NCBI GenBank assembly: GCA_964016885.1
Contig: OZ024757.1
Coordinates: 42,656,001 to 42,720,000, forward strand
Reading direction: 5' to 3'
DNA from: Eledone cirrhosa
Lineage: Eukaryota
DNA: 64,000 nt
Position numbers and translations under genes: made by a program. The first letter of the stretch is position 1, and every line of letters starts with the position of its first letter. This document shows, in pieces, positions 17,810-64,000 of this stretch. The notes beneath the pieces were generated by a model. That model saw only the letters and a program-made list of their open reading frames with translations, did not search any database and was not told the origin of the DNA.

Positions 17810-17833
17810 TTAAATGAATTACTTTCAACTCAC

Positions 17834-29400: not shown

Positions 29401-29493
29401 TCAGTCGAAATGTAACCGAAATGGTAGATATAAATAGTATGCCGATAATAAAAAAGTGAAGTAAGCAAAAATAGGCAAAAATAAATAATAATT

Positions 29494-38595: not shown

Positions 38596-41500
38596 TGACG
38601 TTTTATTCATTTTAGTCACTTATGATGCCATTTTAGCTCTTTTAGTGTCATTTTAGTAATTTATGATGACGTTTTATCCATTCTATTCATTTCTGAACAC
38701 CTTTTAGACATTTTATTGTCTTTTTAGTCATTATGATGCCATTTCAGCCATTGTAGTGCAATTGTAGCCATTTACGATGTCGTTTTACCCATTTTAGTGA
38801 TTTATAATGACGTTTAAGCAATTTTATGTAGTTTTAGTCATTTACGATATCGTTTTTGCCATTTTAGTCGTTTATGATGACGTTGTAGTAGTTTATGATG
38901 ACGTTTCAGCCATTTTATTTATTTATGAAGACGTTTTAGCCATTTTAGAGACAATTTAGCAATTTAACAGTCCGTTTTAGCCACTTTAGTATCATTTACG
39001 ATGTCGTTTTAGCGCTTTTAGTCATTTTGATGACGTTTAAGCAATTTTAGTGTAATTTTATTCATTTAAGATGTCCTTTTAGCCATTTATGATGACGGTT
39101 AAGACATTTAAGTCATTTATCATGACGTTTTAGCCACTTTAGTAATTTTAGTCACTTATGATGCCATTTTTAGCCATTTCGGAGTCATTTTAGTCGTTTT
39201 AGTCATCTATGATGCAGTTTAAGCTATATTAGAGCCATTTTTGTCATTTTAGACGTTTTAGTCGTTTTAGAGTCATTTTAATCATTTATGATGCTGTTGT
39301 AGCCTTTCTAGAGTTATTTTAGTCATTTATGATGCCGTTTTACTCATTTACGAGTCATTTTTGTCATTTTACTCGTTTTAGTCATTTTAGTCAATTATGA
39401 TGCTGTTTTAGCCATTTTAGTGTCATTTTAGTCAATTTTTATGCCGTTTTACACATTTACGAGTCATTTTAGTCGTTTTAAAGTCATTTTAGTCAAATAT
39501 GATACTGTTTTAGCCATTTTAGAGCCATTTAATCATTTATGTTGCCATATTACAACAGAATGGCTAAAACTGCATCATAAATGACTAAAACGTCATCATC
39601 AATGACTAAAATGGCTAAAACGATATCGTAAATGGCTAAAACTACATAAAATTGCTTAAACGTCATTATAAATCACTAAAATGGGTAAAACGACATGGTA
39701 AATGGCTACAATTGCACTAAAATGGCTAAGACGGCATAATAAATGACTAAAGTGACAATAAAATGCTAAAACCGTATCATAATTGACTAGAATGACTCTA
39801 ACACGACGGAAACGTCTAAAATGACTATAAATGGCTCTAAAATGGTTAAACTGCATCGTAAATTACTAAAATGACTCAAAAATTGCTAAATATGGCAACA
39901 TAAATGGTTAAAATGGCTAAAACGTCATCCGGACCGTACTCCGCATGCGCCAAGGCCGTCGGACCGTAGTGCGCATGTGCCAAGGCCGCCGGACCGTAGT
40001 GCGCATGCGCCAAGGCCGCTGAACCGTAGTGCGCATACGCCAAGGCCGCCGGACCGTACTGCGCATGCGCCAAGGCCGCCGGACCGTAGTGCGCATGCGC
40101 CAAGGCCGCCGGACCGTTGTGCGCATGCCTAGAGGCCGCTGGACCTTAGTACGCATGCGCCAAGGCCGCCGGACCGTAGTGCGCATGCGCCATTGCCACC
40201 GTACCGTACTGCGCATGCGCCAAGGCCGCCGGACCGTAGTGCGCATGCGCCAAGGCCGCCGGACCTTACTACGCATGCGCCAAAGACGCCGGGCCGTAGT
40301 GCGTATGCGCCAAGGCCGCCGGACCGTAGTGCGCATGCGCCAAGGCCGCCGGACCTTACTACGCATGCGCCAAAGACGCCGGGCCGTAGTGCGTATGCGC
40401 CAAGGCCGCCGGACCGTATGCGCATGCGCCAAAGCAGCCGGACGGTAGTGAGCATGCGCCAAGGCTGCCGAACCGTAGTGCACATGCGCCAAGGCCGTCG
40501 GACCTTATTGCGCATGCTCCAAGGCCGCCGAACCGCGTGCGCAGTACGGTCGGGCGGGTTTGGCGCATGCGCAGTACGGTTCGGCGGCCTTGGCGCATAC
40601 GCACTACGGTCCGGCGGCCTTTACGCGTGCTCAGTATAGTCCGGCGACCTTAGCGCATGTGCACTAAGGTCCGGCGACCTTGCGCATTTGCACTACGGTC
40701 CGGCGGCCTTGGCGCATGCGCACTACGGCCGACGGCCTTGGCGCATGCGCAGTACGATCCGGCGACCTCGGCGCGTGCGCTGTACGGTCCGGCGGTCTTG
40801 GCGCATGCACACTACGGTCCAGCGGCCTTGGCGCATGCGCACTACGGTCCGACGGCCTTGGCGCATGCGCAGTACGATCCGTCGGACTGGCGCGTGTGCA
40901 GTACGGTCCGGCGGCCTTGGCGCATGCGCACTGCTGTCCAGCGGCCTTGGCGCATGCGCACTATGGTTCGTCGGCTTTGGCGCATGCGCAGTATGGTCCG
41001 GCGGCCTTGGCGCATGCGCAGTATGGTCCTGCGGCCTTGGCGCATGCGCACTACGGTTCGGCGGCTTTGGCGCATGCGCAGTACGGTTCGGCGGCCTTGG
41101 CGCATGCGCAGTACGGTTCGGCGGCCTTGGCGCATGCGCACTACCGTCCGGCGGCCTTGGCGTATGCGCAGTAAGGTACGGCGGCCTTAGTGCATGCGCA
41201 CTACGGTCCGGTGTCCATTGCGCATGCGCACTACGGTCCGGCGGCCTTTGCGCATGCGCACTACGGGCCGGCGACATTGGTGCATGCGCAGTACGGTACT
41301 GCGGCCTTGGCGCATGCGTAGCACGGTCAGGCGGCATTGTCGCATGCGAACTACGGTTCGACTGCCTTGGCGCATACGCACTACGGTCATGCGGCCTTGG
41401 CGCATGCGCACTACGGTTCGGTGGCCTTGGCGCATACGACCTACGCTCCGGCGGCCTTTGCGCATGCGCAGTATGGTCCGACGGCCTTGGCGCATGCGCA

Positions 41501-44500
41501 GTACGGTTTGGCGGCTTTGGCGCATGCGCAGTACGGTCCGGCGGCCTTGGCGCATGCGCACTACGGTCCGGCAGCCTTGGCGCATACGCAGTACGGTCGT
41601 TTAGCCATTTTAGTCATTTAACAGTCCTATTTAGTCATTTTATTCATTTAACAGTCCTATTTAGTCATTTTATTCATTTATGAAGACGTTTTAGGCATTA
41701 TATTGTCTTTTTAGTTATCATGATGCCATTTCAATCGATTTAGTGTAATTTTAGTAATTTACGATGTCGTTTTTGCCATTTTAGTCGTTTATGATAACGT
41801 TGTAATCATTTATGATGACGTTTTAGCCATTTTATTTATTTATGAAGACGTTTTAGCCATTTTAGAGACAATTTAGCAATTTAATAGTCCGTTTTAGCCA
41901 CTTTAGTGTCATTTTAGCCATTTACGATGTCGTTTTAGTCATTTCGATGACGTTTAAGCAATTTTAGTGTAATTTTTATTCATTTAAGATGTCCTTTTAG
42001 CCATTTATGATGACGGTTAAGACATTTAAGTCATTTATCATGACGTTTTAGCCACTTTAGTCATTTTAATCATTTATGATGCTGTTGTAGCCTTTCTAGA
42101 GTTATTTTAGTCATTTATGATGCCGTTTTACTCATTTACGAGTCATTTTTGTCATTTTACTCGTTTTAGAGTCATTTTAGTTAATTATGATGCTGTTTTA
42201 GCCATTTTAGTGTCATTTTAGTCAATTTTTATGCCGTTTTACTCATTTACGAGTCATTTTAGTCGTTTTAGAGTCATTTTAGTCAAATATGATGCTGTTT
42301 TAGCCATTTTAGAGCCATTTAATCATTTATGTTGCCATATTACAACAGAATGGCTAAAACTGCATCATAAATGACTAAAACGTCATCATCAATGACTAAA
42401 ATGGCTAAAACGATATCGTAAATGGTTAAACTACATAAAATTGCTTAAACGTCATTATAAATCACTAAAATGGGTAAAACGACATGGTAAATGGCTACAA
42501 TTGCACTAAAATGGCTGAAATTGCATCATAATGACTAAAAAGACAATAAAATGTCTAAAAGGTCTTCAGAAATGAATAGAATGGATAAAACGTCATCATA
42601 AATTACTAAAATGACACTAAAAGGGCTAAAATGGCATCATAAGTGACTAAAATGAATAAAACGTCATTATGAATGACTAAAATTGTTAAACGTCATCAAA
42701 AAGGACTAACATGACACTAAAATGGCCGAAATGTCATCATAAATGACTGAAATTACAACAAAATGGCTAAGACGGCATAATAAATGACTAAAGTGACAAT
42801 AAAATGCTAAAACCGTATCATAATTGACTAGAATGACTCTAACACGACTGAAACGTCTAAAATGACTATAAATGGCTCTAAAAGGGTTAAAGTGAATCAT
42901 AAATTAGTAAAATAACTCTAGAAAGGCTACAACAGCATCATAAATGATTAAAATGACTCTAAAACGACTAAAATGACAAATGACGGTCAGCTGGCCTTGG
43001 CGCATGCGCACTACGGTCCGACGGCCTTGGCTTATACGCACTACGGTCCGGCGGCCTTGGCGCATGCGCACTACGGTTCGGCGGCCTTGGCGCCTGCGCA
43101 GTACGGTCCGGCGGCCATGGCGCATGCGCACTACGATCCGGTGGTCTTTGAGCATGCGCACTACGGTCCAGCGACCTTGGCGCATGCGCAGTACGGTACT
43201 GCGGCCTTGGCGCATGCGCAGTATGGTCAGGCGGCTTTGGCGCATGCGCACTACGGTTCTGCGGCTTTGGCGCATGCGCAGTACGGTTCGGCGGCCTTGG
43301 CGCATGCACACTACGGTCCAGCGGCCTTGGCGCATGCGCACTACGGTCCGGCGGCCTTGGCGCATTCGCAACAATGTCCGGCGGCCTTGGCGCATGCGCA
43401 GTACGAGCGTCGGCCTCGGCGCGTGCGTAGTACGTACCGGCGGCTTTGGCGCATGCGCACTACGGTCCAGCGGCCCTGGCGCATGCGCACTATGGTTCAG
43501 CGGCTTTGACGCATGCGCACTACGGTCCGACGGCCTTGGCGCATGCGCAGTATGGTCCGGCGGCCTTGACGCATGCGCACTATGGTCCGGCGGCCTTGGC
43601 GCATGCGCACTACGGTTCGGCGGCCTTGACGCTGCGCACTACGGTCCGGCGGCCTTGGCGCATGCGCAGTACGGTACGGCGGCTTTGGCGCATGCGCACT
43701 ACTGTCCGGTGGCCTTGGCGCATGCTTCCTACGGTCCGGCGGCCTTTGCGCATGCGCACTACGGTCCAGCGACCTTGGCGCATGCGCAGTACGGTACTGC
43801 GGCCTTGGCGCATGCTCAGTCTGATCCGGCGGTCTTGGAGCATGCGCAGTACGATCCGGCGGTCTTGGCGCATGCGTAGCACTGTCAGGCGGCATTGTCG
43901 CATGCGAACTACGGTTCGACTGCCTTGGCGCATGCGCACTACGGTCATGCGGCCTTGGCGCAACGCACTACGGTTCGGTGGCCTTGGCGCATGCGCACTA
44001 CGGTCCGGCGGCTTTGGCGCATGCGCAGTACAGTCAGGCGGTTTGGCGCATGCGACCTACGGTCCGGCGCCCTTTGCGCATGCGCAGTATGGTTCGGCGG
44101 CCTTGGCGCATGCGCACTACGGTCCGACGGCCTTGGCGCATGCGCACTACGGTCATGCGGTCTTGGCGCATGCGCAGTACGGTCCGGCAGCCTTGTCGCA
44201 TGCGCAGTACGGTCCGGCGGCTTTGGCGCATGCGCAGTACGGTCCGGCGGCCTTGGCGCATGCGCACTACGGTCCGGCGGCCTTGGCGCATACGCAGTAC
44301 GGTCCTTTAGCCATTTTAGTCATTTAACAGTCCTATTTAGTCATTTTATTCATTTATGAAGACGTTTTAGGCATTATATTGTCTGTTTAGTTATCATGAT
44401 GCCATTTCAATCAATTTAGTGTAATTTTAGTAATTTACGATGCCGTTTTTGCCATTTTAGTCGTTTATGATGACGTTGTAGTCATTTATGATGACGTTTT

Positions 44501-47500
44501 AGCCATTTTATTTATGAAGACGTTTTAGCCATTTTAGAGACAATTTAGCAATTTAACAGTCCGTTTTAGCCATTTTAGTGTCATCTTAGCCATTTACGAT
44601 GTCGTTTTAGCCGTTTTAGTCATTTTGATGATGTTTAAGCAATTTTAGTGTAATTTTATTCATTTAAGATGTCCTTTTAGCCATTTATGATGACGGTTAA
44701 GACATTTAAGTCATTTATCATGAAGTTTTAGCCACTTTAGTCATTTTAATCATTTATGATGCTGTTGTAGCCTGTCTAGAGTTATTTTAGTCATTTATGA
44801 TACCGTTTTACTCATTTACCAGTCATTTTTGTCATTTTACTCGTTTTAGAGTCATTTTAGTCAATTATGATGCTGATTTAGCCATTTTAGTGTCATTTTA
44901 GTCAATTTTTATGCCGTTTTACTCATTTACGAGTTATTTTAGTCGTTTTAGAGTCATTTTAGTCAAATTTGATGCTGTTTTAGCCACTTTAGAGCCATTT
45001 AATCATTTATGTTGCCATATCACAACAGAATGGCTAAAACTGCATCATAAATGACTAAAACGTCATCATCAATGACTAAAATGGCTAAAACGATATCGTA
45101 AATGACTAAAACTACATAAAATTGCTTAAACGTCGTTATAAATCACTAAAATGGGTAAAACGACATCGTAAATGGCTACAATTGCACTAAAATGGCTGAA
45201 ATGGCATCATAATGACTAAAAAGACAGTGTCTAAAAGGTCTTCAGAAATGAATAAAATGGATAAAACGTCATCATAAATTACTAAAATGACACTAAAAGG
45301 GCTAAAATGGCATCATAAGTGACTAAAATGAATAAAACGTCATTATGAATGACTAAAATTGTTAAACGTCATCAAAAAGGACTAACATGACACTAAAATG
45401 GCCGAAATGTCATCATAAATGACTGAAATTACAACAAAATGGCTAAGACGGCATAATAAATGACTAAAGTGACAATAAAATGCTAAAACCGTATGATAAT
45501 TGACTAGAATGACTCTAATACGACTGAAACGCCTAAAATGACTGTAAATGGCTCTAAAATGGTTAAACTGCATCATAAATTACTAAAATGACTCAAAAAT
45601 GGCTAAATATGGCAACATAGAGGCTTAAAATGGCTAAAAAGTCATCCGGATCGTACTGCACATGCGCCAAGGCCGTCGGACCGTAGTGCGCATGCGCCAA
45701 GGCCGCCGAACCTTAGTGCGCATGCGCCAAGGCCGCCGGACCGTAGTGCGCATGCGCCAAGGCCGCCAGACCGTAGTGCGCATGCGCCAAGGCCGCCGGG
45801 CTGTACTGCGCATGCGCCAAGGCCGCCGGACCGTAGTGCGCATGCGTCAATGCTGCCAGACCGTAGTACGCATGCGCCAAGGCCGCCGGACCGTTGTGCG
45901 CATGCGCAAAGACCACTGAACCTTAGTGCGCATGCGCCAAGGCCGCCGGACCGTAGTGCGCATGCGCCAAGGCCGCCGGACCGTAGTGCGCATTCGCCAA
46001 GGCCGCCGGACCTTACTGCGCATGCGCCAAGGCCACTGCACCGTAGTGCGCATGCGCCATGCGGCCGGACCGTAGTGCGCATGCGCCAAGGCTGCCAGAC
46101 CGTAGTGCGCATGCGCCAAAGCCGCCGGACCGTACTGCGCATCTGCCAAGGCCATCGGAACGTAGTGCGCATGCGGCAAGGTCGCCGCACCGTAGTGCCC
46201 ATGCGCCAAGACCGGCGGACCGTAGTGCGCGTGCGCCAAGGCTGCCGGAACTTAGTGCGCATGCGTCAAAGCCGCTGAACCGTAGTGCGCATGCGCCAAG
46301 GACGTTGGACCTTAGTGCGCATGCGCCAAGGTCGCCGAACCGCATGCGCACAAAGGTCCGGCGGCCTTGGCGCATGCGCACTACGACGGCGGTCTTGGCG
46401 CATGCGCAGTACGATCCGGCGGTCTTGGCGCATGCGCACTACGGTCCGGTGGCCTTGGCGCATGCGAACTAAGGTACTGCGGCCTTGGCGCATGCGCACT
46501 CCGGTCCAACGGCCTTGGCACATGAGCACTACGGTTCGGCGGCTTTGGCGCATGCGCACTAAGGTCCGGCGGCCTTGGCGCATGTGCACTACGGTCCGGC
46601 GGCCTAGGCGCCTGCGCACTACGGTTCGACGGCTTTGGCGCATGCGCACTACAGTCCAGCGGCCTTGGCGCATGCGCACTACGGTCCGACGGTGTTGAGG
46701 CATGCGCTGTACGATCCGGCGGCCTCGGCGCGTGCGCAGTACGGTCCGGCGGTCTTGGCGCATGCGCAGTACGGTTCGGCGGCCTTGGCGCATGCGCACT
46801 AATGTCCAGCGGCCTTGGCGCATGCGCACTACGGTCCGGTGATCTTGGCGCATGCGCTCTACGGTTCGGCGGATTTGGCGCATGCGCACTACGGTCCGGC
46901 GGCCTTGGCGCATGCGCAATACGGTACTGCGGCCTTGGCGCATGCGCAGTACGGTCAGGTGGCCTTGGCGCATGCGCACTACGGTCCGGCGGCCTTGGCT
47001 CATGCGCAGTATGGTCCGGCGGCCTTGGCGCATGCGCACTACGGTCCGACGGCCTTGAGCATGCGCACAACGGTCCGACGGCCTTGGCTTATACGCACTA
47101 AGGTTCGGCGGCCTTGGCGCATGCGCACTACGGTTCGGCGGCCTTGGCGCATGCGCACTACGGTCCGGCGGCCTTGGCACCTGCGCAGTACGGTCCGGCG
47201 GCCATGGCGCATGCGCACTACGATCCGGTGGTCTTTGAGTATGCGCACTACGGTCCAGTGACCTTGGCGCATGCGCACTACGGTCCGGCGGCCTTGGCGC
47301 ATGCACACTACGGTCCAGCGGCCTTGGCGCATGCGCACTACGGTCCGGCGGCCTTGGCGCATTCGCAACAATGTCCGGCGGCCTTGGCGCATGCGCAGTA
47401 CGAGCGTCGGCCTCGGCGCGTGCGTTGTACGACCGGCGGCTTTGGCGCATGCGCACTACGCTCCAGCGGCCTTGGCGCATGCGCACTATGGTTCAGCGGC

Positions 47501-50500
47501 TTTGACGCATGCGCACTACGGTCCGAGGGCCTTGGCGCATGCGCAGTATGGTCCGGTGGCCTTGACGCATGCGCACTATGGTCCGGCGGCTTTGGCGCAT
47601 GCGCAGTACGGTTCGGCGGCCTTGACGCTGCGCACTACGGTCCGGCGGCCTTGGCGCATGCGCAGTACGGTACGGCGGCCTTGGCGCATGCGCACTACGG
47701 TCCGGTGGCTTTGGCGCATGCTTCCTACGGTCCGGCGGTCTTTGCGCATGCGCACTACGGTCCAGCGACTTTGGCGCATGCGCAGTACGGTACTGCGGCC
47801 TTGGCGCATGCTCAGTCTGATCCGGCGGTCTTGGAGCATGCGCAGTACGATCCGACGGTCTTGGCGCATGCGTAGCACTGTCAGGCGGCATTGTCGCATG
47901 CGAACTACGGTTCGACTGCCTTGGCGCATGCGCACTACGGTCATGCGGCCTTGGCGCAACGCACTACGGTTCGGTGGCCTTGGCGCATGCGCACTACGGT
48001 CCGGCGGCTTTGGCGCATGCGCAGTACGGTCAGGCGGTTTGGCGCATGCGACCTACGGTCCGGCGCCCTTTGCGCATGCGCAGTATGGTTCGGCGGCCTT
48101 GGCGCATGCGCACTACGGTCCGACGGCCTTGGCGCATGCGCACTACGGTCATGCGGTCTTGGCGCATGCGCAGTACGGTCCGGCGGCCTTGTCGCATGCG
48201 CAGTACGGTCCGGCGGCTTTGGCGCATGCGCAGTACGGTCCGGCGGCCTTGGCGCATGCGCACTACGGTCCGGCGGCCTTGGCGCATGCGCAGTACGGTC
48301 CGGTGGCCTTGGCGCATACGCAGTACGGTCCTTTAGCCATTTTAGTCATTTAACAGTCCTATTTAGTCATTTTATTCATTTATGAAGACGTTTTAGGCAT
48401 TATATTGTCTGTTTAGTTATCATGATGCCATTTCAATCAATTTAGTGTAATTTTAGTAATTTACGATGCCGTTTTTGCCATTTTAGTCGTTTATGATGAC
48501 GTTGTAGTCATTTATGATGACGTTTTAGCCATTTTATTTATGAAGACGTTTTAGCCATTTTATTTATGAAGACGTTTTAGCCATTTTAGAGACAATTTAG
48601 CAATTTAACAGTCCGTTTTAGCCACTTTAGTGTCATCTTAGCCATTTACGATGTCGTTTTAGCCGTTTTAGTCATTTTGATGATGTTTAAGCAATTTTAG
48701 TGTGATTTTATTCATTTAAGATGTCCTTTTAGCCATTTATGATGACGGTTAAGACATTTATGTCATTTATCATGACGTTTTAGCCACTTTAGTCATTTTA
48801 ATCATTTATGATGCTGTTGTCGCCTTTCTAGAGTTATTTTAGTCATTTATGATACCGTTTTACTCATTTACCAGTCATTTTTGTCATTTTAGTCAATTAT
48901 GATGCTGATTTAGCCATTTTAGTGTCATTTTAGTCAATTTTTATGCCGTTTTACTCATTTACGAGTCATTTTAGTCGTTTTAGAGTCATTTTAGTCAAAT
49001 ATGATGCTGTTTTAGCCACTTTAGAGCCATTTAATCATTTATGTTGCCATATTACAACAGAATGGCTAAAACTGCATCATAAATGACTAAAACGTCATCA
49101 TCAATGACTAAAATGGCTAAAACGATATCGTAAATGACTAAAACTACATAAAATTGCTTAAACGTCATTATAAATCACTAAAATGGGTAAAATGACATCG
49201 TAAATGGCTACAATTGCACTAAAATGGCTGAAATGGCATCATAATGACTAAAAAGACAATAAAGTGTCTAAAAGGTCTTCAGAAATGAATAAAATGGATA
49301 AAACGTCATCATAAATTACTAAAATGACACTAAAAGGGCTAAAATGGCATCATAAGTGACTAAAATGAATAAAACGTCATTATGAATGACTAAAATTGTT
49401 AAACGTCATCAAAAAGGACTAACATGACACTAAAATGGCCGAAATGTCATCATAAATGACTGAAATTACAACAAAATGGCTAAGACGGCATAATAAATGA
49501 CTAAAGTGACAATAAAATGCTAAAACCGTATGATAATTGACTAGAATGACTCTAACACGACTGAAACGTCTAAAATGACTATAAATGGCTCTAAAATGGT
49601 TAAACTGCATCATAAATTACTAAAATGACTCAAAAATGGCTAAATATGGCAACATAAAGGCTTAAGATGGCTAAAAACTCATCCGGACCGTACTGCACAT
49701 GCGTCAAGGACGTCGGACCGTAGTGCGCATGCGCCAAGGCCTCCGAACCGTAGTGCGCATGCGCCAAGGCCGCCGGACCGTAGTGCGCATGCGCCAAGGC
49801 CGCCGGGCAGTACTGCGCATGCGCCAAGGCCGCCGGACCGTTGTGCGCATGCGTCAATGCTGCCAGACCGTAGTGCGCATGCGCCAAGGCCGCCGGACCG
49901 TTGTGCGCATGCGCAAAGACCACTGACCCTTAGTGCGCATGCGCCAAGGCCGCCGGACCGTACTGCGCATGCGCTAAGGCCGCCGGACCTTAGTGCGCAT
50001 GCGCCAAGGCCACTGGACCGTAGTGCGCATGCGCCAAGGCCGTTGGACCGGAGTGCGCATGCGCCAAGGCCGCAGTACCTTAGTTCGCATGCGCCAAGGC
50101 CACCGGACCGTACTGCGCATGCGCTAAGGCCGCCGGACCTTAGTGCGCATGCGCCAAGGCCACTGGACCGTAGTGCGCATGCGCCATGCGGCCGGACCGT
50201 AGTGCGCATGCGCCAAGGCCGCCGGACCGTAGTGCGCATGCGCCAAGGCTGCCAGACCGTAGTGCGCATGCGCCAAAGCCGCCGGACCGTACTGCGCATC
50301 TGCCAAGGCCATCGGAACGTAGTGCGCATGCGGCAAGGTCGCCGCACCGTAGTGCGCATGCGCCAAGACCGGCGGACCGTAGTGCGCGTGCGCCAAGGCT
50401 GCCGGAACGTAGTGCGCATGCGTCAAAGCCGCTGAACCCTAGTGCGCATGCGCCAAGGATGTTCGACCTTAGTGCGCATGCGCCAAGGCCGCCGAACCGC

Positions 50501-53500
50501 ATGCGCACAAAGGTCCGGCGGCCTTGGCGCATGCGCACTACGACGGCGGTCTTGGCGCATGCGCAGTACGATCCGGCGGTCTTGGCGCATGCGCACTACG
50601 GTCCGGTGGCCTTGGCGCATGCGCACTAAGGTACTGCGGCCTTGTCGCATGCGCAGTACGGTTCGGCGGCTTTGGCGCATGCGCACTACGGTCCGGCGGC
50701 CTTGGCGCATGCGCATTACGGTCCGGCGGCCTTGGCGCATGCGCAGTACGGTCCGGCGGCCGGCATGCGCAGTAGAGTCATGCGGCCTTGGTGTATGCGC
50801 ACTATGTACCGGCCGCCTTGGCGCATGTGCACTATGTACCGGCCGCCTTGGCGCATGTGCACTATGTACCGGCCGCCTTGGCGCATGCGCACTACTGTTC
50901 GGCGGCTTTGGCGCATGCGCACTACGGTCCGGCGGCCTTGGCGCATGCGCATTACGGTCCGGCGGTCTTGGCGCATGCGCAGTACGGTCCGGCGGCCGCC
51001 TTGACGCATGCGCAGTAGAGTCAGGCGGCCTTGGTGTATGCGCACTATGTACCGGCCGCCTTGGCGCATGTGCACTATGTACCGGCCGCCTTGGCGCATG
51101 CGCACTACTGTTCGGCGGCTTTGGCGCATGCGCACTACGGTCCGGCGGCCTTGGCGCATGCGCATTACGGTCCGGCGGCCTTGGTGTATGCGCACTACGG
51201 TCCGACGGCCTTGGCGCATGTGCACTATGTACCGGCCGCCTTGGTGCATGCGCACTACGGTTCGGCGGCTTTGGCGCACGCGCAGTACGGTTCGGCGGCC
51301 TTGGCGCATGAGCACTACGGTTCTGTGGCCTTGGCGCATGCGTACTACGGTACTGCGGACTTGGCGCATGCGCAGTACGGTCAGGCGGCTTTGGCCCATG
51401 CGCACTACGGTTGGGCGGCCTTGGCGCATGCCCACTACGGTCATGCGGCCATGGCGCATGCGCACTACGATCCGGTGGCTTTGGGGCATGCGCACTACGG
51501 TCCGGCGGCCTTGGCGCATGCGCACTACGGTCTGGCGGCCTTGGCGCATGCGCAGTACGGTCCGGCGGCGTTGGCGCATGCGCAGTACGGTCGTTTAGTC
51601 ATTTTAGTCATTCAACAGTCCTATTTAGTCATTTTATTCATTTATGAAGACGTTTTAGACATTATATTGTCTTTTTAGTTATCATGATGCCATTTCAATC
51701 AATTTAGTGTAATTTTAGTAATTTACGATGTCGTTTTTGCCATTTTAGTCGTTTATGATGACGTTGTAGTCATTTATGATGACGTTTTAGCCATTTTATT
51801 TATTTATGAAGAGGTTTTAGCCATTTTAGAGACACTTTAGCAATGTAACAGTCCGTTTTAGCCACTTTAGTGTCATTTTAGCCGTTTACGATGTCGTTTT
51901 AGTCATTTTGATGACGTTTAAGCAATTTTAGTGTAATTTTATTCATTTACGATGTCCTTTTAGCCATTTATGATGACGGTTAAGACATTTAAGTCATTTA
52001 TCATGACGTTTTAGCCACTTTCGTCATTTTAGTCATTTATGATGTCATGTTTAGCCATTTCGGAGTCATTTTAGTCGTTTTAGTCATTTATGATGCAGTT
52101 TAAGCTATATTAGAGCCATTTTTGTCATTTTAGTCGTTTTAGAGTCATTTTAATCATTTATGATGTTGTTGTAGCCTTTCGAGAGTTATTTTAGCCATTT
52201 ATGATACCGTTTTACTCATTTACCAGTCATTTTTGTCATTTTACTCGTTTTAGAGTCATTTTAGTCAATTATGATGCTGATTTAGCCATTTTAGTGTCAT
52301 TTTAGTCAATTTTTATGCCGTTTTACTCATTTACGAGTCATTTTAGTCGTTTTAGAGTCATTTTAGTCAAATATGATGCTGTTTTAGCCACTTTAGAGCC
52401 ATTTAATCATTTATGTTGCCATATTACAACAGAATGGCTAAAACTGCATCATAAATGACTAAAACGTCATCATCAATGACTAAAATGGCTAAAACGATAT
52501 CGTAAATGACTAAAACTACATAAAATTGCTTAAACGTCATTATAAATCACTAAAATGGGTAAAACGACATCGTAAATGGCTACAATTGCACTAAAATGGC
52601 TGAAATGGCATCATAATGACTAAAAAGACAATAAAGTGTCTAAAAGGTCTTCAGAAATGAATAAAATGGATAAAACGTCATCATAAATTACTAAAATGAC
52701 ACTAAAAGGGCTAAAATGGCATCATAAGTGACTAAAATGAATAAAACGTCATTATGAATGACTAAAATTGTTAAACGTCATCAAAAAGGACTAACATGAC
52801 ACTAAAATGGCCGAAATGTCATCATAAATGGCTAAGACGGCATAATAAATGACTAAAGTGACAATAAAATGCTAAAACCGTATGATAATTGACTAGAATG
52901 ACTCTAACACGACTGAAACGCCTAAAATGACTAATGGCTCTAAAATGGTTAAACTGCATCATAAATTACTAAAATGACTCAAAAATGGCTAAATATGGCA
53001 ACATAGAGGCTTAAAATGGCTAAAAAGTCATCCGGACCGTACTGCACATGCGCCAAGGCCGTAGTGCGCATGCGCCAAGGCCGCCGAACCGTATTGCGCA
53101 TGCGCCAAGGCCGCCGGACCGTAGTGCGCATGCGCCAAGGCCGCCAGACCGTGGTGCGCATGCGCCAAGGCCGCCGGACCGTAGTGCGCATGCGTCAATG
53201 CTGCCAGACCGTTGTGCGCATGCGCCAAGGCCGCCGGACCGTTGTGCGCATGCGCAAAGAACACTGACCCTTAGTGCGCATGCGCCAAGGCCGCCGGACC
53301 GTACTGCGCATGCGCTAAGGCCGCCGGACCTTAGTGCGCATGCGCCAAGGCCACCGGACCGTAGTGCGCATGCGCCAAGGCCACTGGACCGTAGTGCGCA
53401 TGCGCCAAGGCCACTGGACCGTAGTGCGCATGCGCCATGCGGCCGGACCGTAGTGCGCATGCGCCAAGGCCGCCGGACCGTACTGCGCATGTGCCAAGGC

Positions 53501-56500
53501 CATCGGAACGTAGTGCGCATGCGGCAAGGTCGCCGCACCGTAGTGCGCATGCGCCAAGACCGCCGGACCGTAGTGCGCGTGCGCCAAGGCTGCCGCAACG
53601 TAGTGCGCATGCGTCAAAGCCGCTGAACCGTAGTGCGCATGCGCCAAGGACGTTGGACCTTAGTGCGCATGCGCCAAGGCCGCCGAACCGCATGCGCACA
53701 AATGTCCGACGACCTTGGCGCATGCGCACTACGACGGCGGTCTTGGCGCATGCGCAGTACGATCCGGCGGCTTTGGCGCATGCGCACTACGGACCGGCGG
53801 CCTTGGCGCATGCGCAGTACGGTCCGGCGGCCGGCCTTGACGCATGCGCAGTAGAGTCAGGCTACCTTGGTGTATGCGCACTACGGTCCGACGGCCTTGG
53901 CGCATGTGCACTATGTACCGGCCGCCTTGGCGCATGCGCACTACGGTTCGGCGGCTTTGGCGCATGCGCAGTACGGTTCGGCGGCCTTGGCGCATGAGCA
54001 CTACGGTCCGGCGGCCTTGGCGCATGCGCACTACGGTTCTGTGGCCTTGGCGCATGCGTATTGCGGTACTGCGGCCTTGTCGCATGCGCAGTACGGTACT
54101 GCGGACTTGGCGCATGCGCAGTACGGTCAGGCGGCTTTGGCCCATGCGCACTACGGTTGGGCGGCCTTGGCGCATGCCCACTACGGTCATGCGGCCATGG
54201 CGCATGCGCACTACGATCCGGTGGCTTTGGCGCATGCGCACTACGGTCCGACGGCCTTGGCGCATGCGCACTACGGTCTGGCGGCCTTGGCGCATGCGCA
54301 GTACGGTCCTGCGGCGTTGGCGCATGCGCAGTACTGTCGTTTAGTCATTTTAGTCATTCAACAGTCCTATTTAGTCATTTTATTCATTTATGAAGACGTT
54401 TTAGACATTATATTGTCTTTTTAGTTATCATGATGCCATTTCAATCAATTTAGTGTAATTTTAGTAATTTACGATGTCGTTTTTGCCATTTTAGTCGTTT
54501 ATGATGACGTTGTAGTCATTTATGATGACGTTTTAGCCATTTTATTTATTTATGAAGACGTTTTAGCCATTTTAGAGACATTAGCAATTTATCAGTCCGT
54601 TTTAGCCACTTTAGTGTCATTTTAGCCATTTACGATGTCGTTTTAGCCGTTTTAGTCATTTTGATGGCGTTTAAGCAATTTTAGTGTAATTTTATTCATT
54701 TACGATGTCCTTTTAGTCATTTATGATGACGGTTAAGACATTTAAGTCATTTATCATGACGTTTTAGCCACTTTCGTCATTTTAGTCATTTATGATGTCA
54801 TGTTTAGCCATTTCGGAGTCATTTTAGTCGTTTTAGTCATTTATGATGCAGTTTAAGCTATATTAGAGCCATTTTTGTCATTTTAGTCGTTTTAGAGTCA
54901 TTTTAATCATTTATGATGTTGTAGACTTTCTAGAGTTATTTTAGTCATTTATGATACCGTTTTACTCATTTACGAGTCATTTTTGTCATTTTACTCGTTT
55001 TAGAGACATTTTAGTCAATTATGATGCTGTTTTAGCCATTTTAGTGTCATTTTAGTCAATTTTTATGCCGTTTTACTCATTTACGAGTCATTTTAGTCGT
55101 TTTAGAGTCATTTTAGTCAAATATGATGCTGTTTTAGCCATTTTAGAGCCATTTAATCATTTATGTTGCCATATTACAACAGAATGGCTAAAACTGCATC
55201 ATAAATGACTAAAACGTCATCATCAATGACTAAAATGGCTAAAACGATATCGTAAATGACTAAAACTACATAAAATTGCTTAAACGTCATTATAAATCAC
55301 TAAAATGGGTAAAACGACATCGTAAATGGCTACAATTGCACTAAAATAGGATGAAATGGCATCATAATGACTAAAAAGACAATAAAATGTCTAAAAGGTC
55401 TTCAGAAATGAATAAAATGGATGAAACGTCATCATAAATTACTAAAATAACACTAAAAGGGCTAAAATGACATCATAAGTGACTAAAATGAATAAAACGT
55501 CATTATGAATGACTAAAATTGTTAAACGTCATCAAAAAGGACTAACATGGCCGAAATGTCATCATGTATGACTGAAATTACAACAAAATGGCTAAGACGG
55601 CATAATAAATGACTAAAGTGACAATAAAATGCTAAAACCGTATCATAATTGACTAGAATGACTCTAACACGACTGAAACGTCTAAAATGACTATAAATGG
55701 CTCTAAAATGGTTAAACTGCATCATAAATTACTAAAATGACTCAAAAATGGCTAAATATGGCAACATAAAGGCTTAAGATGGCTAAAAACTCATCCGGAC
55801 CGTACTGCACATGCGTCAAGGACGTCGGACCGTAGTGCGCATGCGCCAAGGCCTCCGAACCGTAGTGCGCATGCGCCAAGGCCGCCGGACCGTAGTGCGC
55901 ATGCGCCAAGGCCGCCGGACCGTAGTGCGCATGCGCCAAGGCCGCCAGATCGTAGTGCGCATGCACCAAAGCCGCCGGGCCGTTGTGCGCATGCGCCAAG
56001 GCCACTGGACCGTACTGCGCATGCGCCAAGGCCACTAGAACGTAGTGCGCATGCGCCAAGGCCATCGGACCGTAGTGCGCATGCGCCAAGGCTGCCAGAC
56101 CGTAGTGCGCATGCGCCAAAGCCACCGGACCGTAGTGCGCATGCGGCAAGGTCGCCGCACCGTAGTGCGCATGCGCCAAGACCGCCGGACCGTAGTGCGC
56201 GTGCGCCAAGGCTGCCGGAACGTAGTGCGCATGCGTCAAAGCCGCTGAACCGTAGTGCGCATGCGTCAAAGCCGCTGAACCGTAGTGCGCATGCGCCAAG
56301 GACGTTGGACCTTAGTGCGCATGCGCCAAGGCCGCCGAACCGCATGCGCACAAAGGTCCGGCGGCCTTGGCGTATGCGCACTACGACGGCGGTCTTGGCG
56401 CATGCGCAGTACGATCCGGCGGTCTTGGCGCATGCGCAGTACGGTCCGGCGGTCTTGGCGCATGCGCAGTACGGTCCGGCGGTCTTGGCGCATGCGCACT

Positions 56501-59500
56501 ACGGTCCGGTGGCCTTAGCGCATGCGCACTAAGGTACTGCCGCCTTGTCGCATGCGCAGTACGGTTCGGCGGCTTTGGCGCATGCGCACTACGGACCGGC
56601 GGCCTTGGCGCATGCGCAGTAGAGTCAGGCGGCCTTGGTGTATGCGCACTACGGTCCGACGGCCTTGGCGCATGTGCACTATGTACCGGCCGCCTTGGCG
56701 CATGCGCACTACGGTTCGGCGGCTTTGGCGCATGCGCAGTACGGTTCGGCGGCCTTGGCGCATGAGCACTACGGTCCGGCGGCCTTGGCGCATGCGCACT
56801 ACGGTTCTGTGGCCTTGGCGCATGCGTATTACGGTACTGCGGCCTTGTCGCATGCGCAGTACGGTACTGTGGACTTGGCGCATGCGCAGTACGGTCAGGC
56901 GGCTTTGGCCCATGCGCACTACGGTTGGGCGGCCTTGGCGCATGCCCACTACGGTCATGCGGCCATGGCGCATGCGCACTACGATCCGGTGGCTTTGGCG
57001 CATGCGCACTACGGTCCGACGGCCTTGGCGCATGCGCACTACGGTCTGGCGGCCTTGGCGCATGCGCAGTACGGTCCTGCGGCGTTGGCGCATGCGCAGT
57101 ACTGTCGTTTAGTCATTTTAGTCATTCAACAGTCCTATTTAGTCATTTTATTCATTTATGAAGACGTTTTAGACATTATATTGTCTTTTTAGTTATCATG
57201 ATGCCATTTCAATCAATTTAGTGTAATTTTAGTAATTTACGATGTCGTTTTTGCCATTTTAGTCGTTTATGATGACGTTGTAGTCATTTATGATGACGTT
57301 TTAGCCATTTTATTTATTTATGAAGACGTTTTAGCCATTTTAGAGACAATTTAGCAATTTAACAGTCCGTTTTAGCCACTTTAGTGTCATTTTAGCCGTT
57401 TACGATGTCGTTTTAGCCGTTTTAGTCATTTTGATGACGTTTAAGCAATTTTAGTGTAATTTTATTCATTTACGATGTCCTTTTAGCCATTTATGATGAC
57501 GGTTAAGACATTTAAGTCATTTATCATGACGTTTTAGCCACTTTCGTCATTTTAGTCATTTATGATGTCATGTTTAGCCATTTCGGAGTCATTTTAGTCG
57601 TTTTAGTCATTTATGATGTAGTTTAAGCTATATTAGAGCCATTTTTGTCATTTTAGTCGTTTTAGAGTCATTTTAATCATTTATGATGCTGTTGTAGCCT
57701 TTCTAGAGTTATTTTAGTCATTTATGATACCGTTTTACTCATTTACCAGTCATTTTTGTCATTTTACTCGTTTTAGAGTTATTTTAGTCAATTATGATGC
57801 TGATTTAGCCATTTTAGTGTCATTTTAGTCAATTTTTATGCCGTTTTACTCATTTACTAGTCGTTTTAGAGTCATTTTAGTCAAATTTGATGCTGTTTTA
57901 GCCACTTTAGAGCCATTTAATCATTTATGTTGCCATATTACAACAGAATGGCTAAAACTGCATCATAAATGACTAAAACGTCATCATCAATGACTAAAAT
58001 GGCTAAAACGATATCGTAAATGACTAAAACTACATAAAATTGCTTAAACGTCGTTATAAATCACTAAAATGGGTAAAACGACATCGTAAATGGCTACAAT
58101 TGCACTAAAATGGCTGAAATGGCATCATAATGACTAAAAAGACAATAAAGTGTCTAAAAGGTCTTCAGAAATGAATAAAATGGATAAAACGTCATCATAA
58201 ATTACTAAAATGACACTAAAAGGGCTAAAATGGCATCATAAGTGACTAAAATGAATAAAACGTCATTATGAATGACTAAAATTGTTAAACGTCATCAAAA
58301 AGGACTAACATGACACTAAAATGGCCGAAATGTCATCATAAATGACTGAAATTACAACAAAATGGCTAAGACGGCATAATAAATGACTAAAGTGACAATA
58401 AAATGCTAAAACCGTATGATAATTGACTAGAATGACTCTAACACGACTGAAACGCCTAAAATGACTAATGGCTCTAAAATGGTTAAACTGCATCATAAAT
58501 TACTAAAATGACTCAAAAATGGCTAAATATGGCAACATAGAGGCTTAAAATGGCTAAAAAGTCATCCGGACCGTACTGCACATGCGCCAAGGCCGTAGTG
58601 CGCATGCGCCAAGGCCGCCGGACCGTAGTGCGCATGCGCCAAGGCCGCCAGACCGTGGTGCGCATGCGCCAAGGCCGCCGGACCGTAGTGCGCATGCGTC
58701 AATGCTGCCAGACCGTAGTGCGCATGCGCCAAGGCCGCCGGACCGTAGTGCGCATGCGCCAAGGCCGCCAGACCGTGGTGCGCATGCGCCAAGGCCGCCG
58801 GACCGTAGTGCGCATGCGTCAATGCTGCCAGACCGTAGTGCGCATGCGCCAAGGCCGCCGGACCGTTGTGCGCATGCGCAAAGAACACTGACCCTTAGTG
58901 CGCATGCGCCAAGGCCGCCGGACCTTAGTGCGCATGCGCCAAGGCCACTGGACCGTAGTGCGCATGCGCCAAGGCCACTGGACCGTAGTGCGCATGCGCC
59001 ATGCGGCCGGACCGTAGTGCGCATGCGCCAAAGCCGCCGGACCGTACTGCGCATGTGCCAAGGCCATCGGAACGTAGTGCGCATGCGGCAAGGTCGCCGT
59101 ACCGTAGTGCGCATGCGCCAAGACCGCCGGGCCGTAGTGCGCGTGCGCCAAGGCTGCCGGAACGTAGTGCGCATGCGCCAAAGCCGCTGAACCGTAGTGC
59201 GCATGCGTCAAAGCCGCTGAACCGTAGTGCGCATGCGCCAAGGACGTTGGACCTTAGTGCGCATGCGCCAAGGCCGCCGAACCGCATGCGCACAAAGGTC
59301 CGGCGGCCTTGGCGCATGCGCACTACGACGGCGGTCTTGGCGCATGCGCAGTACGATCCGGCGGTCTTGGCGCATGCGCAGTACGGTCCGGCGGTCTTGG
59401 CGCATGCGCACTACGGTCCGGTGGCCTTAGCGCATGCGCACTAAGGTACTGCGGCCTTGTCGCATGCGCAGTACGGTTCGGCGGCTTTGGCGCATGCGCA

Positions 59501-62500
59501 CTACGGACCGGCGGCCTTGGCGCATGCGCAGTACGGTCCGGCGGCCGCCCTTGACGCATGCGCAGTAGAGTCAGGCGGCCTTGGTGTATGCGCACTACGG
59601 TCCGACGGCCTTGGCGCATGTGCACTATGTACCGGCCGCCTTGGCGCATGCGCACTACGGTTCGGCGGCTTTGGCGCATGCGCAGTACGGTTCGGCGGCC
59701 TTGGCGCATGAGCACTACGGTCCGGCGGCCTTGGCGCATGCGCACTACGGTTCTGTGGCCTTGGCGCATGCGTATTACGGTACTGCGGCCTTGTCGCATG
59801 CGCAGTACGGTACTGCGGACTTGGCGCATGCGCAGTACGGTCAGGCGGCTTTGGCCCATGCGCACTACGGTTGGGCGGCCTTGGCGCATGCCCACTACGG
59901 TCATGCGGCCATGGCGCATGCGCACTACGATCCGGTGGCTTTGGCGCATGCGCACTACAGTCCGACGGCCTTGGCGCATGCGCACTACGGTCTGGCGGCC
60001 TTGGCGCATGCGCAGTACGGTCCTGCGGCGTTGGCGCATGCGCAGTACTGTCGTTTAGTCATTTTAGTCATTCAACAGTCCTATTTAGTCATTTTATTCA
60101 TTTATGAAGACGTTTTAGACATTATATTGTCTTTTTAGTTATCATGATGCCATTTCAATCAATTTAGTGTAATTTTAGTAATTTACGATGTCGTTTTTGC
60201 CATTTTAGTCGTTTATGATGACGTTGTAGTCATTTATGATGACGTTTTAGCCATTTTATTTATTTATGAAGACGTTTTAGCCATTTTAGAGACAATTTAG
60301 CAATTTAACAGTCCGTTTTAGCCACTTTAGTGTCATTTTAGCCGTTTACGATGTCGTTTTAGCCGTTTTAGTCATTTTGATGACGTTTAAGCAATTTTAG
60401 TGTAATTTTATTCATTTACGATGTCCTTTTAGCCATTTATGATGACGGTTAAGACATTTAAGTCATTTATCATGACGTTTTAGCCACTTTCGTCATTTTA
60501 GTCATTTATGATGTCATGTTTAGCCATTTCGGAGTCATTTTAGTCGTTTTAGTCATTTATGATGCAGTTTAAGCTATATTAGAGCCATTTTTGTCATTTT
60601 AGTCGTTTTAGAGTCATTTTAATCATTTATGATGCTGTTGTAGCCTTTCTAGAGTTATTTTAGTCATTTATGATACCGTTTTACTCATTTACCAGTCATT
60701 TTTGTCATTTTACTCGTTTTAGAGTTATTTTAGTCAATTATGATGCTGATTTAGCCATTTTAGTGTCATTTTAGTCAATTTTTATGCCGTTTTACTCATT
60801 TACGAGTCATTTTAGTCGTTTTAGAGTCATTTTAGTCAAATTTGATGCTGTTTTAGCCACTTTAGAGCCATTTAATCATTTATGTTGCCATATTACAACA
60901 GAATGGCTAAAACTGCATCATAAATGACTAAAACGTCATCACCAATGACTAAAATGGCTAAAACGATATCGTAAATGACTAAAACTACATAAAATTGCTT
61001 AAACGTCATTATAAATCACTAAAATGGGTAAAACGACATCGTAAATGGCTACAATTGCACTAAAATGGATGAAATGGCATCATAATGACTAAAAAGACAA
61101 TAAAATGTCTAAAAGGTCTTCAGAAATGAATAAAATGGATGAAACGTCATCATAAATTACTAACATAACACTAAAAGGGCTAAAATGACATCATAAGTGA
61201 CTAAAATGAATAAAACGTCATTATGAATGACTAAAATTGTTAAACGTCATCAAAAAGGACTAACATGGCCCAAATGTCATCATGTATGACTGAAATTACA
61301 ACAAAATGGCTAAGACGGCATAATAAATGACTAAAGTGACAATAAAATGTTAAAACCGTATCATAATTGACTAGAATGACTCTAACACGACTGAAACGTC
61401 TTAAATGACTATAAATGGCTCTAAAATGGTTAAACTGCATCATAAATTACTAAAATGACACAAAAATGGCTAAATATGGCAACATAAAGGCTTAAAATGG
61501 CTAAAAAGTCATCCGGACCGTACTGCACATGCGTCAAGGACGTCGGACCGTAGTGCGCATGCGCCAAGGCCTCCGAACCGTAGTGCGCATGCGCCAAGGC
61601 CGCCAGATCGTAGTGCGCATGCACCAAAGCCGCCGGGCCGTTGTGCGCATGCGCCAAGGCCACTGGACCGTACTGCGCATGCGCCAAGGCCATCGGACCG
61701 TAGTGCGCATGCGCCAAGGCGGCCAGACCGTAGTGCGCATGCGCCAAAGCCACCGGACCGTAGTGCGCATGCGCTAAGGCCGCCGGACCGTACTGCGCAT
61801 GCGCTAAGGCCGCCGGACCGTACTGCGCATGCGCCAAAGCCGCCGAACCGTAGTGCGCATGCGCCCAGGCCGCCGAACCGTAGTGCGCATGCGCCCAGGC
61901 CGCCGGACCGTAGTGCGCATGCACCAAGCCGCATGACTGTATTGCGCATGCGTCAAGGTCCCGGTACCGAACTACACATGCGCCAAGGCCGCCGGACCGT
62001 AGTGCGCATGCGCCAGAGACGCCGAACCGTACTGCGCATGCGCAAGGTCGCCGGACCATACTGCGCATGCGCCAAGGCCGCCAGACTGTACTGCGCATGC
62101 GTCAAAGTCGCAGTACCGAACTGCGCATGCGCCAAAGACGCCGAACCGTCGTGCCATTGCGCCAAGACCGCCGAAACGTACTGCACACGCGCCGAGGCGG
62201 CCGGATCGTACTGCGCATGCCCCAAGGCCGCCGGACCGTAGTGCGCATGCGTCAAGGCCGCCAGACCGTAGTGCGCATGCGCCAAGGCCGCCGAAGCGTA
62301 CTGCGCATGCGCCAAGGCCGCCGACCCTTAGTGCGCATGCGCCAAGGCCGCCGACCATTAGTGCGCATGCGCCAAAACCGCTGGACCGTAGTGCGCATGC
62401 GCCCAGACAACCGGATCGTACTGCGCATGCGCCAAGGCCGCCGTCGTAGTGCGCATGCACCAAGGCCGCCGCACCTTTGTGCGCATGCGGTTCGGCGGCC

Positions 62501-64000
62501 TGGCGCATGCGCACTACGGTTCGGCGGCTTTGACGCATGCGCACTACGTTCCAGCAGCCTTGGCGCACGCGCACTACGGTCCGGCGGTCTTGGCGCATGC
62601 GCCAAGACCGCCGGACCATACTGCGCATGCGCCGTGGGCGCCGGACCGTAGTGCGCATGCGCCAAGGCCGCCGGACCGTAGTGCGCATGCGCCAAGGCCG
62701 CCGGACCGTAGTGCGCATGCGCCAAGGCCGACTGACTACTGCGCATGTCATCGTCGCAGTACCGAACTGCGCATGCTCCAAGTAGTGCGCATGCTCCAAG
62801 ACCGCCGGATCTTACTGCGCAGGCCCCAAGGTCGTCGGACCGTTGTGCGCATGCGCCAAAGCCGCCAACCCGTAGTGCACATGCGCCAAGACCGCCGGAC
62901 CATACTGCGCATGCGCCAAGGCCGCCGGAGCGTAGTGCTCATGCGTCAAGGCCGCCTGACTGTACTGCGCATGCGTCAAGGTCGCAGTACCGAACTGCGC
63001 ATGCGCCAAATTCGCCGGACCGCAATGCGCATGCGCCAAATTCGCCGGACCGCAGTGCGCATGCGCCAAATTCGCCGGACCGCAGTGCGCATGCGCCAAA
63101 GCCGCCGGACCGCAGTGCGCATGCGCCAAAGCCGCTGGACCGTACTGCGCATGCGCCAAGGCCGCCGGACCGTAGGGCACATGCGCCAAAGACGCCGAAC
63201 CGTCGTGCCCATGCGCCAAGACCGCCAGCTTGTACTGCGTATGCCCCAAGGCCGCCGCACCGTAGTGCGCATGCGACAAGGCCGCAGTACCGTAGTGCGC
63301 ATGCGCCAAGGCCACCGGACCGTAGTACGCATGAGCCAAGGCCGCCGGACCGTAGTGCGCATGCGCCAAAGACGCCGAACCGTCGTGCCCATTCGCCAAG
63401 AACGCCGGACCGTACTGCGCATGCGCCAAGGCCGCCGAACCGTACTGCGCATGCGCCAAAGCCGCCTACCCGTGGTGCGCATGCGCCAAAGCAGCCGGAC
63501 CGTAGTGCGCATGCGCCAAGGCCACCGGACCGTACTGCGCATGCTCCAAGACCGCCGGATCGTACTGCGCCTGCCCCAAGGCCATCGGACCGTAGTGCGC
63601 ATGTGCCAAGGCCGCCAGACCGTAGAGCGCATGCGCCAAGACCGCCGAACCGTACTGCGCATGCGCCAAGGCCGCCGAACCGTACTGGCATGCGCCAAAG
63701 CCGCCAAACCGTAGAGCGCATGCGCCAAAGCCGCTGGACCGTAGTGCGCATGCGCCAAGGCCGCATGACCGTAGTGCGCATGCGCCAAAGCCGCTGGACC
63801 GTAGTGCGCATGCGACAAGGCCGCAGTACCGTAGTGCGCATGCGCCAAGTCCATCGGACCGTAGTGCGCATGAACCAAGGCCGCCGGACCGTAGTGCGCA
63901 TGCGCCAAGGCCACCGGACCGTACTGCGCATGCGCCAAGGCCGCCGGACCGTAGTTCGCATGCGCCAGAGCCGCAGAACCGTAGTGCACATGCGCCAAGC
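38596..64000. repeat. Composite macrosatellite: ~2.7-4.0-kb units alternating the AT 10/30-bp satellite and a GC-rich 30-bp satellite, each block internally inverted
   Basis: AT inversion junction gttgccatattacaacagaatggct at 39541, 42331, 45011, 49043, 52415, 55165, 57929 and 60884; GC blocks lie between them. Confidence 0.95.
39930..64000. repeat. GC-rich 30-bp satellite (GGACCGTAGTGCGCATGCGCCAAGGCCGCC) in blocks ~39930-41598, 42983-44305, 45645-48331, 49683-51592, 53032-54337, 55795-57105, 58566-60051 and 61513-64000
   Basis: 30-bp period is visible as column alignment in the 60-nt lines; ~14 kb in total, roughly 470 monomers. Confidence 0.97.

Follow-up and report, generated by a model that had tools for sequence, protein, structure and literature searches.

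Analysis of a 64,000-nucleotide stretch of Eledone cirrhosa DNA (assembly GCA_964016885.1, contig OZ024757.1, positions 42,656,001 to 42,720,000; hereafter the window, numbered from its first letter) revealed an array in which two satellites, one AT-rich and one GC-rich, alternate and each change orientation, forming kilobase-scale dyads of 1.0-2.7 kb. Short motifs were classified by strand, which gave four kinds of segment, A (AT satellite, reverse), B (AT satellite, forward), C (GC satellite, forward) and D (GC satellite, reverse), alternating across 38592-61514; A and B contain about 30% GC, and C and D about 67%. These segments make up a periodic four-part unit of 2.7-4.0 kb that is repeated from 38592 to about 61800, with seven intervals between the points at which the AT satellite inverts (AT flips); the GC satellite inverts at a GC flip, and the two satellites meet in a B/C and a D/A transition. 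All four junction types are present in six of the seven units. The array holds eight AT flips, seven B/C transitions, seven D/A transitions (five found by junction probe, the other two being variants) and six GC flips within units (five copies and one variant near 40530), and the number of GC monomers between these fixed junctions ranges from 18 to 27 in C and from 20 to 63 in D. The coordinates are collected in Table 1.

Table 1. Coordinates of the satellite arrays, units, junction sites and inverted patches in the window
Feature	Position	Strand	Details
Plain AT satellite array	1-11966		9/11/21-base subunits; periods 30, 41 and 71; 30.6% GC
Third satellite	29720-38591	+	41-bp unit, about 216 copies; adjoins the left edge of the array
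Left edge, inverted copy of first part of B	38592-38856	-	passes in register into A at about 38856
Inverted patch 1	38592-38856		inverted B
Segment A copy 1, AT satellite reverse	38857-39548	-	
AT inversion site, copy 1 of 8	39546-39578		with 11-base non-satellite spacer
Unit 1	39559-42338		B 39559-39930, internally deleted; A 41599-42338
Unit 1, GC part	C 39931-40535; D 40536-41598		C 20 and D 34 monomers; variant flip about 40535
Unit 2, rearranged	42349-45018		B 42349-42895; D 42981-44306 (42 monomers); A 44307-45018
Inverted patch 2	42896-42980		inverted A
Unit 3	45029-49050		B 45029-45647; A 48331-49050
Unit 3, GC part	C 45648-46342; D 46343-48330		C 23 and D 63 monomers; GC flip 46337
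Inverted patch 3	46440-46519 (unit 3) and 50033-50112 (C of unit 4)		80 bases exact
Unit 4	49061-52422		B 49061-49684; A 51593-52422
Unit 4, GC part	C 49685-50499; D 50500-51592		C 27 and D 34 monomers; GC flip 50494
Unit 5	52433-55172		B 52433-53033; A 54339-55172
Unit 5, GC part	C 53034-53690; D 53691-54338		C 21 and D 20 monomers; GC flip 53685
Unit 6	55183-57936		B 55183-55796; A 57107-57936
Unit 6, GC part	C 55797-56342; D 56343-57106		C 18 and D 24 monomers; GC flip 56337
Unit 7	57947-60891		B 57947-58567; A 60053-60891
Unit 7, GC part	C 58568-59284; D 59285-60052		C 23 and D 24 monomers; GC flip 59279
Segment B copy 8	60902-61514	+	last AT-to-GC transition at 61514/61515, read-crossed
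GC satellite array	61515-64000	+	30-bp monomer, 77 monomers tiled; C-like start; leaves the window
Inverted patch 4, copy of GC flip region	62411-62602	-	inside the plain GC array

An earlier sequence-only reading of this DNA had described a palindromic block over 38596-64000 in which every unit reads AT-forward, GC-forward, flip, GC-reverse, AT-reverse. That order was recovered in six of the seven intervals, the interval 42336-45016 (unit 2) having neither the GC-forward arm nor the GC flip; there B is followed by an 85-base inverted piece of A (up to 97.6%), which leads directly into D. The block itself extends to about 61800 and the remainder, 61800-64000, is a GC-only array, plain from about 61785 to the end of the window. 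The eight AT flips of that reading (starts at 39546, 42336, 45016, 49048, 52420, 55170, 57934 and 60889; spacings of 2790, 2680, 4032, 3372, 2750, 2764 and 2955) were borne out exactly by a 33-base junction probe, seven copies being identical and the eighth carrying a single change. The GC flips that it had placed at about 46340, 50500, 53690, 56341 and 59283, with a variant at about 40535, were found by probe at 46337, 50494, 53685, 56337 and 59279, with the variant at about 40530; the same probe gave one spurious match at 49833 and one inverted copy at 62469 that is not in that reading.

Comparison of the AT and GC monomers gave a best match of 11 of 30 letters, a value equalled by 72% of 2000 shuffles, and a common origin of the two was ruled out on this ground. 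A coding reading of the GC arrays was likewise ruled out, the long frames lying on both strands and containing frame shifts, as is expected of a 30-base GC repeat. Rfam returned no match over the 64-kb window, the exact 30-base GC monomer was absent from the metagenome and viral contigs scanned, and the exact 30-base AT monomer was absent from the metagenome contigs scanned.

Alignment of the same segment between units revealed similarities of 92.5-99.9% for A, 94.1-99.8% for B, 88.2-97.0% for C and 83.6-99.5% for D. The mirror arms were alike at 78.5-87.9% (A against inverted B) and 84.6-92.2% (C against inverted D), and unrelated windows of the plain arrays of the same satellites, which served as control, at a mean of 82-84% with a maximum of 85.7%; the highest mirror values (unit 1 AT, 87.9%; unit 1 GC, 90.0%; unit 3 GC, 92.2%) were obtained where arms of unequal length had been aligned with gaps. 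The best 40-mer matches of inverted A in B scored 31.8 of 40 against 31.4 +/- 0.3 for the control pieces, and C and inverted D have only 8 monomer types in common, of 72 and 140. The arms show mirror identity at the level of the satellite family, not at the level of the copy.

Long inverted matches of 94-100% were confined to four patches with in-register switch points (Table 1), the remaining inverted matches being runs of consensus GC monomer or AT stretches of less than 90 bases. The suggestion that the arms match in specific variants holds for the example on which it was based, since 38592-38834 and the reverse complement of 42428-42670 are 97.9% alike, and does not extend to the unit arms, which lie at about the 82-84% level of the control. 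The inverted piece at the left edge matches seven of the eight AT-forward segments at 94-96%, and this match would appear from its sequence to be the product of a later exchange, a patch rather than the arm of one unit. Diagnostic variants are common to the units in a mosaic pattern, B3, B5 and B7 being nearly identical and B6 and B8 representing another type.

Analysis of the junctions indicated that the best perfect stem at the AT flip is 10 bp with a 44-base loop. The GC flips lie on the GC monomer's own dyad, and perfect stems at the unit GC flips reach 25 bp with a 21-base loop, one of the three tested having a best stem of 15 bp. Near-perfect arms with a short loop, as looked for in a cruciform, were not found at the unit flips, the only loop-free site being 62578-62617, a perfect 20-bp palindrome with zero loop, centred on the monomer dyad, where the GC array turns back. 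At the left edge the 41-bp satellite and inverted B, which is entered midway, overlap by 4 bases, and inverted B then runs on in register into A within sequence common to both. This anatomy bears what may be the marks of template switching or of recombination at short homology.

Six stretches of 600 bases, each around a flip (three AT and three GC), were folded as single-strand DNA, with one arm turned back as control. The AT flips gave -111 to -122 kcal/mol against -25 to -28 kcal/mol without the flip and about -354 kcal/mol for a perfect palindrome; for the GC flips the corresponding values were -318 to -328, -170 to -178 and about -490 kcal/mol. The longest unbroken helices predicted were 13-14 bp (AT) and 36-51 bp (GC), and RNA parameters yielded the same energy order as DNA. 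Single strands are predicted to fold into long mismatched hairpins, which supports one half of the earlier proposal that the unit forms a kilobase-scale hairpin or cruciform. The other half, extrusion of a cruciform from duplex DNA, is unlikely at the unit flips because the hairpins are mismatched and the perfect stems at the flips are short.

Four of the seven listed sequencing runs were compared with one whole unit (59100-61600), namely X1, X4, which bears a second organism label, and X5 and X6, which are reduced-representation reads of two other samples under the same species label. In X1 the D/A junction is spanned at depth 19 by a 263-base contig that shows no differences and has three exact copies in the window, and the AT flip is spanned at depth 109 by a shorter contig of 131 bases with 9 differences. 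The shorter contig carries one letter present in none of the eight window copies, so that the AT-flip site exists beyond these copies too. In X5, 510 minus-strand molecules begin at 61561 and 328 minus-strand reads cover 61460 and hence span B/C; the corresponding numbers in X6 are 265 and 173. Both sides of D/A are covered by 71-82 reads of X5. The GC flip carries a restriction site at which X5 and X6 reads start.

The reads also revealed a junction unlike any in the window, from GC-reverse to B at 61244, which is present in none of the seven B copies. Its strongest row comprises 473 and 226 reads, with 67 letters on the short side; the junction lies also on a 331-base contig of X4 and is not at a restriction site. 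These data point to a common shorter unit that lacks both A and the AT flip. Weaker AT/GC junctions absent from the window, to 61423 and to 60242, were observed in reads of X4, X5 and X6, and a B-end variant before 61463 was observed in X1, X5 and X6.

AT-rich loose ends at 61297 and 61445-61448 (up to 756 reads) were considered as element ends and rejected because the reads start at GCATGC and stop at AATT and one consensus is adapter-like. Such starts and stops are consistent with a double-digest library, the enzymes presumably being SphI and MluCI. The opposite-strand joints 59545/61597 and 60227/60902 were discounted as ordinary collinear satellite sequence placed on the two arms, and the joint 59399-61423, with a short side of only 27 letters, was not relied on.

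The core of the GC monomer is a 10-base dyad, GCGCATGCGC, of which 286 exact copies were found in 39931-64000 and none in 1-39930. In the available text of PMC10810270 the preferred or consensus NRF1 site equals GCGCATGCGC, and NRF1 is described as contacting TGCGC half-sites; only 12 dyad sites carry both outer bases of these half-sites. Among 260 distinct monomer types the G/C sites of the core vary 17.6 times on average against 40.2 times at the 13 G/C sites outside it (rank test p 0.0006, with one common polymorphic site left out and with sites and types that are not independent), and the core is less variable in six of seven sub-arrays and equal in C1. Transitions at CpG amount to 15.7 per site against 21.5 at the other C/G sites (258 types), and since they show no excess there is no sign of germline methylation. 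The constancy of the dyad would fit binding of an NRF1-family protein and self-repair of the palindrome alike.

Elsewhere in the window, the plain AT array runs in reverse to about 1540 and forward beyond it. The array flips near 1543 at a 16-bp perfect stem with a 14-base loop, unlike the unit AT flip, and its reverse arm (about 600-1500) holds older variants in common with A and B. The region of 12-30 kb contains dinucleotide microsatellites, two non-long-terminal-repeat (non-LTR) retroelement remnants and one nucleotide-sugar transporter exon. The first non-LTR element (13150-17240, plus strand) has endonuclease and reverse transcriptase domains, its frames shift near 15830 and 16710, and the 5' part, which includes a cysteine-rich stretch, seems to be duplicated. 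About 20 kb separate the SLC35A-like transporter exon (17828-18157, minus strand) from the composite array, which places the satellite blocks beside or within a gene; for this exon the sole relative returned was a cuttlefish protein (40%). The second retroelement is broken (18970-20697, minus strand) and carries an endonuclease domain of a type that in Octopus bears the annotation 'craniofacial development protein 2-like'; for its frame 19363-20694 the top hit was at 65%, and among 69 hits the best named relative, 64% identical across 55% of the query, came from Octopus bimaculoides. Further downstream, 27880-29398 consists of about 2.7 copies of a 556-base unit (94%), bracketed by a 236-base direct duplication (26663-26893 and 29491-29725; 95%), the second copy of which adjoins the 41-bp satellite. 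That satellite is CpG-poor and holds a short dyad, and three satellites meet within 30 kb.

An organisation of this kind has been published for Tribolium, and the suggestion that the array is an undescribed system was therefore overstated (available text of PMC13081366 and PMC12581902). According to the accessible part of the first of these papers, from 2026, macro-dyad satellite symmetries are documented only in Tribolium, centromere function is unconfirmed and architecture rather than sequence is proposed to matter for centromeres (PMC13081366). In T. madens, as described there, a cassette of the minor satellite lies inside the major one, with a conserved inversion point, two differing conserved transitions and a variable repeat number, and the major satellite has conserved inversion sites of its own; in T. 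freemani, cassettes with dyads of about 4 kb lie between the major arrays (TfSat01/TfSat03; accessible part of PMC12581902). In the available text of PMC13277930 and PMC13427858 macro-dyads occur in the reference lists only. Like the Tribolium cassettes as they appear in these sources (PMC13081366, PMC12581902), the array described here has two intermingled, alternating satellites that each reverse inside their own array, inversion sites that are near-identical among copies, two differing transition zones flanking the inner satellite, and an inner repeat number that varies between conserved junctions within a fixed frame, the cassettes measuring 2-4 kb.

The differences are also considerable, as far as the accessible text of the Tribolium papers allows comparison. 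Tribolium monomers are hundreds of bases long against 9-30 bases in the present array, and TmSat1 and TmSat2 of T. madens derive from one 110-bp element (PMC13081366), whereas the satellites here are unrelated and of opposite composition. The outer arrays of Tribolium are long and variable (median 14 kb), while the AT arms here are short and nearly fixed, and the Tribolium regions cover megabases on all chromosomes against the 23 kb seen here in a mollusc host. Unlike Tribolium, the present array is a strictly periodic higher-order repeat. The 1061-bp satellite of T. brevicornis and TmSat2 of T. madens resemble it in having a kilobase-scale unit with imperfect inverted halves in tandem, but those units consist of one sequence family, in the text available from PMC13081366 and PMC12581902, and the unit here consists of two unrelated families with two inversion centres. 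The complex repeats of Meloidogyne, in the part of PMC3694981 available, are also higher-order units of different satellites with a conserved short motif like a protein box at the junctions; in that source no array-level inversion is reported and the motif is CENP-B-box-like, while here it is an NRF1-site dyad. What is new in the present array is that the monomers, of 30% and 67% GC, are unrelated and that the GC monomer contains an NRF1-consensus dyad. The literature searched, which lacked most subscription papers, yielded no account of this repeat, of centromeric satellites in cephalopods or of satellite arrays carrying NRF1 sites.

We consider it probable that the array is a non-coding composite satellite higher-order repeat with four fixed junctions, likely with one template-switch origin followed by block amplification. 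An AT satellite and an unrelated GC satellite were likely joined once by template switching at short matches, after which unequal exchange or rolling-circle amplification likely multiplied the unit as a block. Each junction would have arisen once, and the apparent conservation of the junctions would mainly reflect descent by amplification. Mosaic variants together with variable numbers of GC monomers are what would be expected from unequal exchange after block amplification. Strand switching and conversion may now take place between the opposed arms, and the inverted patches and the deletion in unit 2 would be examples. The block is likely satellite DNA rather than a transposon and, by analogy, is probably heterochromatic, working like the cassettes of the putative (peri)centromeres of Tribolium.

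Several points weigh against this interpretation. The template-switch origin is read from junction anatomy alone, and the switch into D at 42980 is without clear microhomology. The GC flip is crossed by none of the 16 pieces listed (there are 1998 others), and X1 may be the source sample itself. With the transporter exon at a distance of about 20 kb, the array need not be centromeric. Two further observations fit an old inverted duplication, namely an older patch of about 100 bases common to A and B (83-90%), which is also found in the reverse arm of the left AT array, and an 11-base variant limited to the B end and the AT-flip side.

Such an event, one inverted duplication of an AT-GC boundary whose perfect arms were stabilised by complementary deletions and then amplified in tandem, is unlikely in our view, though it deserves serious weighing; origin-dependent inverted-repeat amplification and tandem inversion duplication are models of this type. 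Both halves of the unit read AT-forward, GC-forward once one of them is turned over, about 28 bases at the B1 end resemble the start of inverted A, and the 11-base variant occurs there in 7+7 copies and in none of the plain AT array. Unit 2 and the junctions seen only in reads show that flip-removing deletions do occur. However, no long collinear mirror identity remains, the two AT/GC transitions differ in their flanking variants and C shares few monomer types with inverted D; moreover, the 30-base probe also matches the plain AT array twice at 4 edits.

A selected (peri)centromeric element, in which an NRF1-family protein binds the dyad and selection keeps the mirror symmetry, would add a function to the same history and seems to us rather improbable. 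The lower variation of the dyad core, its equality with the NRF1 site and the lack of a CpG transition excess agree with it, as do the several kinds of AT/GC junction in other samples and under the second organism label. In Tribolium, selection for array symmetry is proposed and not shown, in the available text of PMC13081366. Self-templated repair or mutation context could nevertheless preserve a palindromic core with no protein involved, complete TGCGC half-sites are few, recent amplification fully explains the identical junctions, and the reads suggest common units without an AT flip, so that full symmetry seems dispensable.

The sequence-only reading had left the choice between a tandemly amplified foldback-type element and an inversion-born macrosatellite, of which the second agrees with our results. 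Drosophila FB and sea-urchin TU are foldback transposons. A foldback-type DNA transposon with AT outer and GC inner arms, amplified in tandem or seeding both satellites, is very improbable here. The tandem sub-repeats within the arms were found, and long modular inverted arms made of short tandem repeats in variable copy number are also a feature of Tetris, an element that can feed satellites and seeded those of Drosophila virilis, according to the accessible part of PMC4079207; the same AT-to-GC transition, with variants, is also frequent in the reads. But the array has no matching terminal inverted repeats (the unit ends at either flip, compared as inverted repeats, agree in 12 of 30 and 6 of 30 letters, ungapped), no non-repetitive flanking domain and no target duplication of 8-10 bases at its edges, of which the left lies inside B and the right blends into the GC array. 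No transposase was found in the window: the 19 array frames of at least 200 aa are read-outs of the repeats, and the seven flanking frames belong to endonuclease, reverse transcriptase and transporter families only, although non-autonomous foldback copies lack a transposase as well. The plain arrays also speak against such an element, and the mixed 'flanks' in restriction-site-associated (RAD) reads begin at four-base restriction sites with adapter-like letters and are library products.

That the flips are assembly or chimeric-read artefacts is extremely improbable: the uncrossed GC flip would suit this explanation, but arms only 79-92% alike are unlike the perfect mirror arms that fold-back chimeras give, variants are nested and shared among the units, contigs or reads span three of the four junction types, and the AT-to-GC transition is crossed in two further samples.

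By analogy with Tribolium, octopods might have evolved independently a centromeric architecture of the same type, with genome-wide mirror cassettes in which a CpG-rich, unmethylated satellite bearing hundreds of NRF1 sites is nested in an AT satellite and (peri)centromeric chromatin is organised jointly by a transcription factor and the dyad symmetry of the arrays; we regard this as a doubtful conjecture. A matching four-junction cassette in a mollusc would nonetheless provide an independent test of the architecture idea put forward for Tribolium, and probably a second phylum for it. The composite array interpreted here as a block-amplified satellite also illustrates the null model, in which block amplification explains the identity of the junctions and the similarity of the arms does not exceed that of arbitrary pieces of the satellites. 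If NRF1 binds the dyad core, the satellite would offer a housekeeping transcription factor a large sink or scaffold. Cephalopods are known for heavy adenosine-to-inosine editing, and transcription of the array, if it occurs, would yield long mismatched double-stranded RNA.

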